Positions 1,328 to 25,498 of a DNA stretch of 40,640 nucleotides are shown piece after piece (position 1 is the first letter of the stretch; the number at the start of each line of letters is the position of its first letter). The position numbers were made by a program, and so were the translations under genes. The notes under the pieces were generated by a model that was not told where the DNA came from, searched no databases, and saw only the letters and a program-made list of their open reading frames with translations. This DNA is from a virus (Duplodnaviria > Heunggongvirae > Uroviricota > Caudoviricetes): the IMG/VR virus record IMGVR_UViG_3300019378_000003; one strand, written 5' to 3'.

Positions 1328-1939
1328 TTAACTTAATTTCTACCATTCGGTAGCAATGCTACGACGGACATATTTGCTATAAACATTTCCAGCATGGTCA
1401 AATAGAAGAGCCCATCCATAGAAATGCTGACTGTTCTGCTCAGCAATCTTATATGTATCAACAAAAAAGATACCGCGACAAGAAGAATCAATTTCCCTTG
1501 CGCCAGCAGGAATATCCTGACAACTACGCTCCATATACATAGTATATAAGCCAGGTCCAAGTTCATCCATTTTATCAACGAGCAACATATCATTGGTTGG
1601 ACCAATGGCAATCTTATGCTCACCATTCTCGCGCATAATATTAGCAAAAGGCATCGCGGCAAGAGCCTCATTGGAAACATATGTTGCTAATGCTTCAGCG
1701 AGCTCTTCACTCTTTACATAGCCAGAAAGGTCAACTTCTGGTGCCGCAACAGAACCTTCACTATTGCTTACAGTTTCAGGACAAATCCATTCACCCTTAC
1801 TATTGGAGGTATAAGTTTTACCATTTTCAATTACATATACAGTATCTCCCATAGAATAGCTGGGAATTACATCCAAATCCGCAATCGCATCTGCGATATA
1901 ATGTTTATCGGTATTTGGATTATGTGCTGAATAAGCCAT
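1328..1939 (-). CDS. hypothetical protein (probable TAG read-through near the C-terminus)
   Basis: The track ORF ends at TAG 1340-1342. Reading TAG as Gln gives ...TEWQKLS-TAA at 1328, just before a terminator hairpin (~1300-1322). Confidence 0.7.
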
Positions 1940-1941
1940 AA

Positions 1942-2607
1942 TTACATTTCTCCTTCATAGTCATATTCTGGAAATAAATCTCGAAGTTCATCATCTTCAG
2001 CAATAAAATCAATAAAAAAACATTGGCAACCAGGATGATAGGGTGGACCACTACCTTCTTCACATTCATCATATCGATAAATCTCTCCATCGACATATTC
2101 TTTTGTGCATTTTTCACATCCACCAACAAATTCGAACACAACAAATTCATCATCATCAAAAGCATATGCTTGTAATTCATGATAAATGCAAGATTGTTCC
2201 GTTAATAAAATTTTATCATAAGCATTTCCCAATTTTACAATAGTATATTCTTTATTTATACATTTTTTTATATGCTTAGCAAGACGCTCTTCGAAAGTTA
2301 ATCCATCATCATCATATAAAAGTTTTTTATAATTAATATGTCTATAATCTAAATAGACTCCATGAATTTCTTTGAAATATTTTACAATTCGTTTAAAATA
2401 CGCTTCAAAAGCATCATAAAATATTTTTAAATGTTCTTCATGAATTTCATCCCAAGGTTTCTCTTCATTAAAACCTGGAATAGCGGTTACCAAAAGCTCT
2501 TCTAACGCTTCATATCGTATAATATCTAAATCTTTTTTAAGTTTTAAATATTCTTTTCTCATACGCTTAGCTTTTGGGCTTTTTGGTTTCATATGACGTT
2601 TTCTCAT
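1942..2607 (-). CDS. phage head morphogenesis / minor head protein (Mu gpF, SPP1 gp7-like)
   Basis: C-terminal CxxC...PPYHPGCQC resembles the PPxHPxCRC signature. Confidence 0.6.
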   Translation of the reverse strand: MRKRHMKPKSPKAKRMRKEYLKLKKDLDIIRYEALEELLVTAIPGFNEEKPWDEIHEEHLKIFYDAFEAYFKRIVKYFKEIHGVYLDYRHINYKKLLYDDDGLTFEERLAKHIKKCINKEYTIVKLGNAYDKILLTEQSCIYHELQAYAFDDDEFVVFEFVGGCEKCTKEYVDGEIYRYDECEEGSGPPYHPGCQCFFIDFIAEDDELRDLFPEYDYEGEM

Positions 2608-3434
2608 TAATCTAACTTATCAGCAAGTCGAGCAGTTGCTGAACGTTCAGTTTGTGGTAAATCAACATATGCGAACAATGGCTCTCCTTGTAATTTATCC
2701 ACTGCTCTGCGCATACCTGAACTTTCTTCAAATACTTTTTTATCGACTTGTGAATAGTCTCCTTCTAACCATAATTGAGAACCTTCACCAACACGACCAA
2801 TCAAAAGTTGAACATGTTGTTTAGTTAAATTCTCTGCTTCTGATGACATAATAATAGCATTTTTAATATCTCGGCCACGAATAAAACCTAAATGTTGAAT
2901 TTCAATTTGACCACGCTCAATAAAGCGCTCAACACCTTCCATACCACCAACATGGTCGGCAAGAGGTCCAACATATGGCATTAACTTTTCAAAGGCCGAA
3001 CCTGGCAAAGCGCCAAGCGGAGTAGTATCTCTAACTTCAATATTATTTCGCACCCAAACAATCTTATCAAATTCGCCTTTTTCAATGAGGTCAAGAGCAT
3101 GAACGACCATAAGCATTGTTTTACCACTGCCGAAACAGCCAGTTAGGATTTTGATAGTTGTATTAGGGTCTTGTAACATGTCAAATGCGAGACGCTACTG
3201 GGCGTTACGAGGGCAAATTTTACCTGAAAAACCATTGTCAATCGGCTTATAACTAATGCGCTCGTAACGGTCACCGGTCCAAACATATTCACCTGCGGGG
3301 CGACCTTCGGCATTTAATACAATAATATATTCATTAATTTGATTGAAATATACATTCCAATCTGGATGACTATAAAAATCACTTAAATGTGGGTCATCTG
3401 CTGGGATTACCTTGTAACCAGTATATCGTTCCAT
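2607..3434 (-). CDS. phoH: PhoH-family ATPase, one in-frame TAG (Gln)
   Basis: Track ORFs 3195..3434 and 2607..3179 are in frame across TAG 3195-3197, giving PRNAQ(Q)RLAFDMLQD...GCFGSGKT...GFIRGRDI...SEAENLT...GRVGEGS...GDYSQVD. Confidence 0.9.
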
Positions 3435-3446
3435 ATTAGCAACTCC

Positions 3447-4067
3447 TTAACTTAGTAGTTCTGATATATCAGTAATAATACCGCAATACACGCCTTTGGC
3501 TAAGCCTTCTTCGGCAGTAATATACCAGTCACTAACAATATTTTCCTCAATTTCTTCTTTTGTATAGGATGTTTTTTCCTCTACAAATGTAGCAAGTTTT
3601 TCTACTTGCTCTTGATATGCCATAACTTGAGGTAGAATTTCAGCATATGTACCACTGAATGCACCACTGCCTTGATGTAGCAATAGTTGCGCTCTTGGCA
3701 AACAGTATCTCTTATGGCAAGAGAGAAGAATGTATGCCGCGGCACTATAGCTGCGCCCGATGTTAATGCCCCAAACGGGAGTTTTGCTAAGAGTGATTGT
3801 ATCAATTAGGGCATTATTTACTTCCAAATCGCCGCCAGGAGAGAAGAAAAGCAGACGAATGGGCTTACGAGATTCAACTGGTAAGTCTTTGTCCTCCTGA
3901 TTCCATTTTAGAATGTATCGAATGAGATATAAACAGTCCTCGCAAACTTCTGTATCAAGCCAGACGATACGATTTTCCAAGTCTTGATAGTATTGTAATA
4001 GACCTGGGTCAGGTAGCTGTAGATTTTCTACAGACTTTGGGATTTCTACATAATAATTACTTTCCAT
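3447..4067 (-). CDS. clpP: ClpP-family protease subunit
   Basis: FFSPGG, GRSYSAAA (Ser), LLHQG (His), DWYITAEE (Asp); GGAGG RBS before ATG 4067. Confidence 0.85.
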   Translation of the reverse strand: MESNYYVEIPKSVENLQLPDPGLLQYYQDLENRIVWLDTEVCEDCLYLIRYILKWNQEDKDLPVESRKPIRLLFFSPGGDLEVNNALIDTITLSKTPVWGINIGRSYSAAAYILLSCHKRYCLPRAQLLLHQGSGAFSGTYAEILPQVMAYQEQVEKLATFVEEKTSYTKEEIEENIVSDWYITAEEGLAKGVYCGIITDISELLS

Positions 4068-4153
4068 AGAACCTCCTACAAGAAAAGCCCCGGCAAATGC
4101 CGGGGCCATGAATAAAATATGTGAACTAAAATAATTATCTCCAATATAATCAC

Positions 4154-4260
4154 AAGGGCCAGAAAAGATAAATATTTATCTGCTCACTAATTTATATTCA
4201 GCAGAATTTTTATAATCTTGACTTTAAATAAAACTGTATAAAATTTGCTGAATAGCCCTT
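4154..4260 (-). ncRNA. stem-CAGCAA element A
   Basis: AAGGGC-TATTCAGCAAAT...GCCCTT end pairing. Confidence 0.55.
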
Positions 4261-24183: not shown

Positions 24184-24271
24184 ATTCGGCAAGCTCCTGA
24201 GGAGTCATTTGGTCGATTTCTTCACGGGTCAGTGGGCGAGGACCCTTACCATAAAGAAGTTCATATTCCAC
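24164..24271 (-). CDS. 35 aa leader ORF
   Basis: First ORF after the promoter, with AAGGAG SD and GTG start. Confidence 0.5.
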   Translation of the reverse strand: MEYELLYGKGPRPLTREEIDQMTPQELAEYAKNAR

Positions 24272-24448
24272 AGGGATTTCTCCTTTCTTCATTTTCTATA
24301 AATATTATATCATAAATTTATAGAAAAGTCAATTAGAAGATTCTCTTGGCGAGATTGGATTGGAATTCCTTTCTCAACCTTACATATATATTATATCAAA
24401 ATTTTTTGAAATTTTCAATTTAACTCTTCGCAGCGTTAGCTGCGAAGT

Positions 24449-24480
24449 TGACAACGATAAAAATTTTTGGTATAATATAT
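24449..24480 (+). promoter_or_regulatory. plus-strand promoter of the divergent island
   Basis: TTGACA-17-TATAAT with TG extension, back-to-back with the minus-strand promoter at 24376-24419. Confidence 0.8.
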
Positions 24481-24540
24481 ATAGAAAATGAGCGAAGAGT
24501 TCATTTATCAAATATTTTATTTATAGGAGCGAACTATATT

Positions 24541-24765
24541 ATGATGACTAATAAGATTATTTACACTCGTAAGATTGCTATGAAGTTGGTTGAGATGGGT
24601 CATGTGCCCGCAGGCACTATGCCGAACCCCAGCAAGCCCGAATTCCTTTGCTGGATTTTTGAGATTACTCCGAAGTTTGAAAAAGACCTTCAGACTGTAC
24701 TTGGCGAAGCGACTCCGCGCAGCCGTTCGGTAAGTGTTAAGGTAACGGACGCCAGCATTGAATAA
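24541..24765 (+). CDS. small putative DNA-binding protein (DUF5659-like)
   Basis: GGAG SD; IYTRKIAMKLVEMG.....PNP.KP....W.FE.T pattern. Confidence 0.6.
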   Translation: MMTNKIIYTRKIAMKLVEMGHVPAGTMPNPSKPEFLCWIFEITPKFEKDLQTVLGEATPRSRSVSVKVTDASIE

Positions 24766-24880
24766 CGTCGCACCCCGTTAGGTAAATTATCTACTATACT
24801 TCAGGTAAATGGGTAATAAGTGATAATTTTACTGATAGAGATTTGATATTCCCCTGATAGTCAGGGGGTGAGTAAGAAAG

Positions 24881-25498
24881 TTGGCTATTTAGAAAAGATT
24901 CCCCGCCGATACGGATCTAGAGAAGGAGATTACGTTTTTGAAAGATAAGAGTATTGATGCCGAGTTATATGCTTATCTACAATTCCTTTCTTATCCTATT
25001 GACGGGGCTACTGTCGTGAAAAAGAGAAATATGCCGTCGCAGGCTGAAATATGTTAGAAAATTGGAATTAAAAGTCCAAAGACATATAGGTCTCATTTGG
25101 CTATATTGATTGATAAGGGTTATGTTATTGAACGAGATGATGTTTATATATTGCCGGAAGTGGAAGATATTTATTTATTGCTGCCTTTGCCGACATTATA
25201 GTTTATCTTGGATACAGTAACGGACCCTGTTATCAAGATGTATATTTATTTAGGCTAGAGATGGAAGTATAAGCCTGGGTATATTTTCACTTAGGAAGAA
25301 GTAGCAGAGCATATAGGAATAAAGTTGGATGGTAATGCAGTCGCTCGGCGAATGATAAAGCATGGTTTGATAGCGCTATAGAACCATGGTTTGATTGCAT
25401 TTGAATAGTTCTTTGATGGAAAAAGTCCACGGTATCGGCTACTGGGGTGGTCAGATGCTTATGTGGCTAGGGAGGCCGTACCTGGGGTAGTGGTTTGA
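24881..25498 (+). CDS. 205 aa winged-helix, replication-initiator-like protein with 7 in-frame TAG
   Basis: Absent from the ORF track. GGGGGTG SD, TTG start. TAG at 24890, 25055, 25199, 25256, 25292, 25379 and 25406, no other stops until TGA. PSQAEICQKIGIKSPKTYRSHL and FTQEEVAEHIG look like HTH segments. Confidence 0.85.

Follow-up and report, generated by a model that had tools for sequence, protein, structure and literature searches.

TAG has very probably been reassigned from stop to glutamine (NCBI table 15) in a large tailed phage (~169 kb) found in samples of animal gut and faeces. In the window, the whole 40,640-nucleotide stretch of DNA analysed here, TAG is a sense codon, glutamine fits as its meaning, TAG terminators have been lost, and a tRNA with the anticodon CUA (tRNA-CUA) is present and conserved. 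Recoding of TAG to glutamine is already known, and this phage adds a large animal-gut phage lineage to the recoded phages. Window DNA occurs in 24 sequencing runs, all of them gut, faecal or viral metagenomes. When 25 kb were compared by Megablast with cultured and deposited phages, the only matches were tRNA-sized; INPHARED contained no close genome, and neither a 39-mer of window sequence nor a 38-mer of the tRNA had an exact match in IMG/VR.

The preliminary description of this DNA stated that at least four genes are whole only if TAG is read, and the four that it named are confirmed, together with their 11 TAGs. The gene at 1328-1939 (minus strand, 203 aa, function unassigned) has one TAG (1340-1342, codon 200), four codons ahead of its TAA stop. 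The same position is AAA (Lys) in the relative L005/G001, which has the same K-L-S-TAA tail. The column is mixed among homologues (K6 V4 M4 Q3 R2 E2), and 23 of 23 homologues extend beyond it. The PhoH-like ATPase gene (2607-3434, minus strand, 275 aa) carries its TAG at 3195-3197 (codon 80), with matches to Pfam PF02562 (1.4e-36) and phrog_2765 (1e-65) running across it. This TAG had been placed at the conserved glutamine of the PRNxxQ motif; Q does stand there in 4/4 aligned homologues, and the codon facing it in G001, a complete 173-kb relative, is CAA. At the position of one relative's PhoH TAG, three homologues have Leu and one has Gln. The nearest cultured PhoH is that of Lactococcus phage 949, at 46% identity.

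The third gene (4379-5311, minus strand) encodes a conserved phage protein of 310 aa, function unassigned, with 226 full-length homologues. Its TAG at codon 225 (4637-4639) is CAG in L008 and L009, and that at codon 32 (5216-5218) is GAT or GAA in these two, in a column that varies (P/E/D) among homologues. An identical 310-aa product, called with TAG as Q, occurs on 18 examined contigs from independent samples in a public collection. The fourth gene (24881-25498, plus strand) encodes a helix-turn-helix protein of 205 aa (LexA_DNA_bind / HTH_36-like; Pfam PF01726, 1.8e-7; 162 homologues). It contains seven in-frame TAGs (first bases 24890, 25055, 25199, 25256, 25292, 25379 and 25406) and only two CAA/CAG codons. 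At these columns Q is present in 26/42, 1/48, 30/48, 48/48, 22/48, 22/48 and 9/48 homologues, respectively, and five of the seven TAGs face CAA in L013, L014 and L015. TAG thereby accounts for 7/9 glutamine positions in this gene, against 3/218 in the other called genes (4379-5311 omitted; Fisher P = 7.5e-10). A search for related loci in IMG/VR with this protein found no relative, and relatives were taken from the protein collection.

Throughout the four genes, in-frame interruptions are TAG only, never TAA or TGA, and homology is continuous over all 11 TAGs. Each gene has between 4 and 226 homologues that extend across its TAGs, and Pfam and PHROG matches cross them as well. Aligning homologues at the TAG columns, a check that the preliminary description had proposed, came out largely for glutamine: no homologue terminates there and 7/11 columns carry Q, but close homologues have other residues at 4/11 (K; D/E; E; N). 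These four columns vary, and K, D/E, E and N are conservative exchanges for glutamine. Homologue DNA was checked in five homologues, and the glutamines are encoded by canonical CAA/CAG in L008, L013 and L014. These three records need no recoding, since all translate under table 11, and L013 and L014 have no in-frame TAG. The reverse case is also found, in that TAGs of the relatives L015 and G001 face CAA/CAG in the window. Summed over 10 columns, log-odds are +26.4 bits for Gln, -5.2 for Glu, -7.9 for Lys, -17.8 for Ser, -22 for Tyr and -43 for Trp, a lead for Gln of >31 bits over any other residue. At two columns Q is invariant (48/48 and 4/4 homologues). Glutamine, the meaning given to TAG in the preliminary description, is thus the best-supported reading, from alignments, canonical CAA/CAG matches and log-odds together. 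Some database homologues (L009, L015) owe a Q to the collection's gene caller, which rendered their TAG as Q.

Stop usage is consistent with this. The 51 called genes end in TAA (32) or TGA (19), none of them in TAG, with a single ambiguous TAG at 19607. Under a 15% TAG share of stops, at most one TAG terminator in 51 genes has P = 0.0025. The earlier count of about 65 genes was not reproduced, as our own codon-model caller (not Prodigal) gave 49-56 genes under table 11, but the one gene thought plausibly to end in TAG was recovered as a 637-aa ORF ending at 19607. The three to four calls that end in TAG under table 11 are each either that ORF itself or a fragment of one of the genes described above. 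None of the ~25 small genes at 26.6-40.3 kb needs a TAG in its call. Two TAG-sense ORFs with in-frame TAGs (21637-21945 and 28972-29457) were rejected as not real, their TAGs lying upstream of a better internal ATG. Chance origin of the interrupted frames is excluded, because only TAG interrupts them, 18 contigs give the identical 310-aa product, and TAG terminators are as rare as the above probability indicates.

Re-calling genes with tables 11 and 15, as had been suggested, raised coding density from 69.3% to 81.1% in G001 (TGA as sense, 66%; TAA as sense, 65%), but only from 52.3% to 54.4% in the window. The gain in the window is small because this is a TAG-poor, non-structural part of the genome, and a lack of coding-density gain, if judged on the window alone, would mislead. 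Similarly, the expectation that standard callers fragment the genome holds strongly in G001, where reading TAG as sense takes 263 genes to 180 and mean length from 153 to 262 aa, but in the window it applies to just the four genes above. The 282 in-frame TAGs of G001 are found chiefly in genes for portal, terminase-like and tail proteins, and its TAG-rich genes (portal, 1e-80; terminase-like; tail-fibre-like) lie in plus-strand blocks. The lineage has the customary two-part layout, with one block that suits the standard code and another, rich in TAG, that holds the virion genes. Recoding of TGA in G001, suggested by its tRNA-UCA, was rejected, as coding density drops. Annotation of this genome and its relatives requires table 15; without it, PhoH, the conserved 310-aa protein, the DNA-binding regulator and the majority of virion genes are broken up or missed.

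The ambiguous TAG (19607-19609) lies in a gene for a large protein at 19466-21520 (minus strand), which has 637 aa if the TAG is a stop and 684 aa with read-through. Read-through is favoured by L025 (90% identical), which retains the TAG and an open frame, with 6- and 12-nt indels, to the same TGA. Against it, substitutions after the TAG are even over codon positions (5/4/5), L026 has a TAA ~10 codons further on, and the G001 orthologue is shorter. Further, the end of the tail forms a hairpin that is conserved also in L026, where it is non-coding.

The CUA tRNA reported in the preliminary description is found by both ARAGORN and Rfam at 7790-7882 (minus strand; anticodon at 7848-7850). This suppressor tRNA is 93 nt long, with A1:U72, G2:C71, G73 and an encoded CCA, and scores 57.5 bits against Rfam RF00005, its variable region carrying a 20-nt insert. 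It is nearly identical in G001 despite diverged flanks, and one pair of the extra stem has changed in a compensatory way, from U:A to C:G. The combination of A1:U72 and G73 occurs also in 5/24 phage tRNA-Gln genes from the fetched loci, among which the commonest set is U1:A72, G73 (7/24). The gene belongs to an array of 32 tRNA genes (5604-13327, minus strand) that also holds two tRNA-Gln(UUG) genes (6317-6390 and 11268-11340, the latter with the anticodon loop CUUUGAA). Without its extra hairpin, the suppressor is 77% identical to tRNA-Ile, 73% to tRNA-Asn and 72% to tRNA-Trp of the window; tRNA-Gln is not the closest. Its anticodon arm and that of tRNA-Trp in the window are the same except for the first pair of the stem and the central base of the anticodon. 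Origin as a mutated copy of that tRNA-Trp is nevertheless unsupported, given an overall identity below that to tRNA-Ile. A promoter-like repeat (7889-7917, minus strand), comprising an extended -10 element TGATATAAT and a conserved start region, ends 7 nt before the tRNA. Nine copies, against zero expected by chance, lie between 0.9 and 24.4 kb of the window, all of them on the minus strand; the one at 19441-19469 scores 11/12 as a sigma-70 site.

The extra hairpin may itself bear on how the tRNA is charged. The real anticodon arm has the loop CUCUAAA, which reads UAG, and the variable-arm hairpin (7824-7836, minus strand) has the 7-nt loop CUCUGAA, a copy of a glutamine anticodon loop with CUG at 7829-7831. 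Across the family this spare loop takes the form CU/UU-CUG/UUG-AA/AG, and the extra stems of long-arm tRNA-CUA show covariation. A Gln-type loop is present in 22/41 long-arm CUA tRNAs by strict criteria, and in 30/35 unique genes by looser criteria in a set chosen by anticodon arm alone. By the stricter criteria it is found in 0/85 other long-arm (>=83 nt) tRNAs, nearly all of them Ser, Leu or Tyr, from the same phage loci. In opal suppressors (tRNA-UCA) of 43 other phage contigs the spare anticodon arm is instead that of Trp (CCA), and no cross combination of suppressor and spare anticodon is a tRNA. As judged from these sequences, the design is both general and specific, and our literature search for a spare anticodon arm found no description of it. 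We tentatively suggest, at somewhat short of an even chance, that the suppressor remains a glutamine tRNA through two anticodon arms, the spare one supplying the Gln identity elements U35, G36 and A37. If true, such a spare cognate arm offers a possible reason why synthetases that read the anticodon continue to accept suppressor tRNAs.

It is scarcely credible that TAG is still a stop here and that the interrupted genes are to be explained as pseudogenes, as nonsense mutants or by errors of assembly. The small density gain in the window would suit that reading, as would the poor codon-usage score (-15) of the helix-turn-helix gene. Neither TAA nor TGA joins TAG in interrupting the frames, however, and the same sequence has been assembled from many independent samples. 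In relatives the same genes have TAGs at other positions. Homology also persists 3' of the TAGs, TAG is missing as a terminator and the tRNA-CUA is conserved. A sense codon for a residue other than glutamine is very improbable too, be it Lys, Trp, Ser, Tyr, pyrrolysine or Glu (the last if, in a host that lacks GlnRS, the tRNA is glutamylated but not amidated). The name 'Pyl' that ARAGORN gives the tRNA reflects its anticodon only; the extra arm aside, the tRNA fits the general tRNA model, Q outscores Lys at the TAG columns, and pyrrolysine decoding is excluded by the alignments alone. The long variable arm and G73 are tRNA-Ser-like, features used by SerRS, and here again it is the alignments alone that exclude Ser. 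Tryptophan draws on the near-match to the anticodon arm of tRNA-Trp, set against the modest identity of the hairpin-less tRNA to tRNA-Trp and tRNA-Ile. The K, D/E, E or N at four TAG columns would be in keeping with another residue, but every such residue has negative log-odds, Q is invariant at two columns, and the anticodon presented by the extra arm, CUG, is one for Gln.

With TAG as glutamine, the following sequence of steps can be proposed. The tRNA-CUA would be transcribed from its dedicated promoter-like repeat and charged with glutamine by host enzymes; a host role is inferred because searches of the complete relative G001 for a release factor (PF00472) and a Glu/Gln-tRNA synthetase (PF00749) found neither. 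The charged tRNA would compete with release factor 1 to read UAG. The terminator role of TAG has been abandoned, leaving TAA and TGA to end genes, and CAA/CAG has given way to TAG at some glutamine positions, 11 codons in four genes here and many in virion genes elsewhere, as seen in the relative. The charging enzyme, the time of tRNA expression, and the appearance of TAG-gene products only after the tRNA accumulates are all inferred.

A refinement of this explanation, compatible with it, is a conditional code, in which TAG would terminate early in infection through host RF1 and encode glutamine once the phage tRNA accumulates, so that genes containing TAG are time-gated. As a corollary, where TAG stands at the natural end of a gene (19607), a short or a long product would result, depending on stage. 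We rate this refinement, corollary included, at slightly less than an even chance. TAGs are unevenly spread, not needed for the calls at 26.6-40.3 kb and dominant in one regulator-like gene, and those of G001 are rich in plus-strand blocks with portal, terminase-like and tail-fibre-like genes. The tRNA-CUA lies behind its own promoter-like repeat, the relative yielded no release factor gene, and the model has been published by Borges et al. (bioRxiv 10.1101/2021.08.26.457843). On the other hand, single TAGs also occur in PhoH and in two other ordinary genes, a pattern more drift-like than gating-like. The helix-turn-helix regulator-like gene, with nearly all of its glutamines as TAG, would be a clean candidate for a translation-gated switch.

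Several known systems invite comparison. The E. coli supE (glnV44) tRNA-Gln(CUA) and Su7 tRNA-Trp(CUA) are amber suppressors charged with glutamine. Borges et al. agree on glutamine charging of supE/Su7-type suppressors (bioRxiv 10.1101/2021.08.26.457843). Like these, which a glutamine-charging enzyme accepts, the phage tRNA has a CUA anticodon, a weak 1:72 pair and G73. However, supE and Su7 are class I point mutants with a 5-nt variable loop and weak suppression, whereas the phage tRNA is a dedicated gene with a second, ~13-nt hairpin; its 23-nt, hairpin-forming variable region departs from a supE-type class I tRNA-Gln body. With class II tRNAs (Ser, Leu, Tyr) it shares its length and a stem-loop that separates the anticodon and T arms, yet its extra loop is of Gln-anticodon type and the alignments rule out Ser, Leu and Tyr as the meaning of TAG.

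Phages with TAG-to-Gln recoding and suppressor tRNAs have been described (bioRxiv 10.1101/2021.08.26.457843), PMC9523058 reports proteomic validation, and in a cell-free test 28/29 phage tRNA-CUA inserted glutamine (PMC12636597). Code 15 gut phages include crAss-like, Lak, Agate, phAss-1 and other phages (Borges et al. 2021, bioRxiv 10.1101/2021.08.26.457843; Peters et al. 2022, PMC9523058; PMC10607447). The present phage differs from them in its lineage, in that its relative yielded neither a release factor nor a synthetase gene, and in having one regulator-like gene almost all of whose glutamines are TAG. It resembles them in using TAG at glutamine positions, encoding its own tRNA-CUA, having rare or absent TAG terminators, and coming from gut or faecal sources. 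As in those phages, recoded codons cluster in structural and late genes, as observed in the relative, while the standard code suits the early or non-structural ones.

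Four genes of the window are whole only when TAG is read as a sense codon. As the preliminary description had claimed, their fragments merge once this is done, and neither TAA nor TGA interrupts the frames. They lie at 1328-1939 (one TAG), 2607-3434 (PhoH, one TAG), 4379-5311 (two TAGs) and 24881-25498 (+ strand, a helix-turn-helix gene with seven TAGs), and matches to Pfam and PHROG models and to database homologues extend across their TAGs, confirming the observation. Two further ORFs from a mechanical list, 21637-21945 and 28972-29457, were rejected as TAG-containing genes and left uncounted because the TAG sits in an extension preceding a better ATG. 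Under table 11, a purpose-made codon-usage caller gave 49-56 genes, with three or four ending in TAG, all of them fragments of the four genes or the ORF ending at 19607. After correction, 51 genes stop at TAA (32) or TGA (19) and none at TAG; assuming that TAG makes up 15% of stops, the probability of at most one TAG terminator among 51 genes is 0.0025. The earlier statement that only one of about 65 genes ends in TAG is borne out as to the single candidate, at 19607, with the gene count revised downward.

This candidate (TAG 19607-19609), in a large ORF at 19466-21520, is ambiguous and might be read through into a coding tail. Although no stop follows for 47 codons, until a TGA within the -35 element of the next promoter, and a 90% identical homologue (L025) keeps both TAG and frame across indels of 6 and 12 nt, substitutions in the tail fall evenly on the codon positions (5/4/5). 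Further, a 74% relative (L026) has TAA about ten codons further on, and the orthologue in G001, the complete relative IMGVR_UViG_3300029305_003293, is shorter. The terminal portion of the tail forms a hairpin, which L026 retains outside its coding sequence. The TAG is probably at a natural gene end, and any read-through tail probably matters little. The hairpin itself (GTTGC-CTTTGA-GCAAC, 19475-19490, - strand) lies just upstream of a promoter-like repeat at 19424-19452; in L026 it follows the stop codon, with changes that are G:U-compatible.

The interpretation of TAG as glutamine is supported by homologues at the codon level. Their DNA was examined to guard against circularity, because the public protein collection already renders TAG as Q on some contigs; three of the loci fetched (L008, L013 and L014) have no in-frame TAG and can be translated with table 11. 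Against non-recoded homologues, five of the seven helix-turn-helix TAGs align with CAA, the remaining two with GAA and AAT. In 4379-5311, the TAG at codon 225 aligns with CAG, and that at codon 32, where the column is variable, with GAT or GAA. The PhoH TAG does fall, as first described, on the Q of the PRNxxQ motif, which is Q in 4/4 homologues and CAA in G001. In the reverse comparison, TAGs of G001 and of another homologue (L015) match the window's CAA or CAG codons. For 1328-1939, the TAG (codon 200) corresponds to Lys (AAA) in G001, followed by the same K-L-S-TAA tail, and 23/23 homologues extend beyond this column. A single column is discordant: the PhoH TAG of one relative, where three homologues have Leu and one Gln. 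The alignment at TAG columns that had been proposed as a check favours Gln, whose log-odds over ten homologue columns sum to +26.4 bits, versus -5.2 for Glu, -7.9 for Lys, -17.8 for Ser, -22 for Tyr and -43 for Trp.

The window (40.6 kb, GC 44%) carries nearly all genes of its first 24.3 kb on the - strand, including those for a PhoH-like ATPase, a ClpP-like protease, an AAA ATPase, a peptidase and several large proteins without assigned function. An array of 32 tRNA genes spans 5.6-13.3 kb, and small genes, most of them on the - strand, form a block from 26.6 kb onward. The Rfam tRNA model finds four tRNA-like elements beyond the ARAGORN calls, all on the - strand (5774-5835, 12332-12403, 30598-30666 and 30672-30739), two of which form a tandem pair distant from the array. 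The DNA is detected in faeces and gut metagenomes, with animal as recorded source. Exact matching against IMG/VR gave no hit for the window, but its proteins are present in the public protein collection, where at least 18 contigs, the longest of 169 kb, carry the 310-aa product of 4379-5311 with TAG rendered as Q.

G001 (173 kb, 97% complete) is collinear with the window over 97.6-146 kb, at 66-85% DNA identity across alignable parts. With TAG as stop it yields 263 genes (mean 153 aa, coding density 69.3%), 111 of which 'end' in TAG; with TAG as sense, 180 genes (mean 262 aa, 81.1%). As a control, its density drops to 66% with TGA as sense and to 65% with TAA. The anticipated gain on re-calling is therefore large in G001, whereas in the window density rises only from 52.3% (table 11) to 54.4%, because the counterpart block in G001 is TAG-poor. 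The 282 in-frame TAGs of G001 (17% of TAG+CAA+CAG) cluster in + strand blocks at 0-50 and 150-173 kb, where they occupy 20-40% of Gln positions, versus 0-8% in the - strand block matching the window, except for a single 10-kb bin, which reaches 25%. Among the TAG-rich genes are those for the portal (phrog_2739, 1e-80), a terminase-like protein, a tail-fibre-like protein and giant products of some 2,400 aa. G001 also has a 72-nt tRNA with anticodon UCA (locus L012, 1251-1322) and no visible recoding for it to serve; TGA recoding was rejected on the fall in coding density. The window is without a tRNA-UCA.

The CUA tRNA, also correctly described, lies at 7790-7882 (- strand). Its acceptor stem is regular (A1:U72, G2:C71, G73, CCA encoded), as are its D, anticodon and T arms, with anticodon loop CUCUAAA and a 23-nt variable region. 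G001 carries the same 93-nt tRNA, nearly identical, between unrelated flanks. ARAGORN's label 'Pyl' has only the anticodon behind it; tRNA-Ser, suggested by the long arm and G73, is excluded by the alignments of TAG columns. The variable region folds into a short stem (U:A, U:A, C:G; one U:A to C:G double change between window and G001) with a 7-nt loop, CUCUGAA, which reproduces U33, CUG and A37 of a tRNA-Gln anticodon loop, one base off the real loop. The window's own tRNA-Gln (11268-11340) has CUUUGAA.

This spare anticodon arm recurs. An IMG/VR scan with a pattern for the anticodon arm only returned 89 unique tRNA-CUA genes; of the 35 unique long-arm tRNA-CUA counted in a later tally, 30 formed a hairpin whose loop is of the Gln type (CUG or UUG). 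Under a stricter definition, such an arm occurs in 22/41 long-arm tRNA-CUA, versus 0/85 other long-arm tRNAs (nearly all Ser, Leu or Tyr) of the same loci. The extra-arm stems covary. Across the family, 30/34 have a weak or mismatched 1:72 pair, and 31/34 have G2:C71; among 24 phage tRNA-Gln of these loci, seven have U1:A72 and five A1:U72, each with G73. Screening for opal suppressors yielded 43 tRNA-UCA genes of 93-100 nt (contigs L183-L237) with a Trp-type acceptor stem (A1:U72, G2:C71, G3:C70, G73) and an extra arm of up to 5 bp, whose loop, N-U-CCA-A-A, is that of the tRNA-Trp anticodon. A combined scan of all anticodon and loop combinations gave no tRNA for the crosses (CUA with CCA, UCA with CUG). 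The spare arm independently supports Gln at TAG, and it may act as an identity element keeping the suppressor a glutamine tRNA. Long arms occur on ordinary phage Trp tRNAs too: tRNA-Trp(CCA) of two contigs (L259, L284) measure 84-88 nt, and the 4-5-nt loops of their long variable arms do not resemble anticodon loops. A 92-nt tRNA-Ile(UAU) with a long variable arm (L118, 2437-2528) shares its cluster with a long-arm tRNA-CUA.

The tRNA-CUA is preceded by a dedicated promoter-like repeat, comprising -35 TTGAnn, a 17-nt A/T spacer, an extended -10 (TGATATAAT) and then a conserved ATATATGTAAGGTTGAG, the conserved start region being GTAAGGTTGAG. Its nine copies, all - strand and within 0.9-24.4 kb (888-916, 7889-7917, 12506-12534, 13043-13071, 13504-13532, 19424-19452, 21529-21557, 22458-22486 and 24373-24401; none in 25-40.6 kb), precede protein genes, tRNA groups and the suppressor; the repeat also occurs in the relative (L005, 13460-13511). 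No gene for a release factor or a Glu/Gln-tRNA synthetase was found in G001, so charging and termination presumably depend on the host. We propose that the tRNA would be transcribed from its repeat, charged by the host and, as it accumulates, allow TAG to be read as Gln.

The helix-turn-helix gene has TAG at 7/9 Gln positions, the first at codon 4, versus 3/218 in other called genes, a tally leaving out 4379-5311 and its two TAGs (P = 7.5e-10). Its non-recoded homologues L013 and L014 have 9-11 CAA/CAG and no TAG; those of G001 and L015 have four TAGs and one TAG, respectively. It is a candidate for a gene whose product appears only once the suppressor works. This gene and the TAG distribution would fit a hypothetical temporal switch in which TAG would still terminate early in infection.

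The literature searched held no mention of the spare-arm design. TAG-to-Gln recoding in phages is already well known, and a division into TAG-rich and TAG-poor blocks is the standard pattern described for recoded phages (Borges et al., bioRxiv 10.1101/2021.08.26.457843). The Gln isotype predominates among phage tRNA-CUA genes (PMC10879173), and Gln is inserted in 28/29 cases (PMC12636597).
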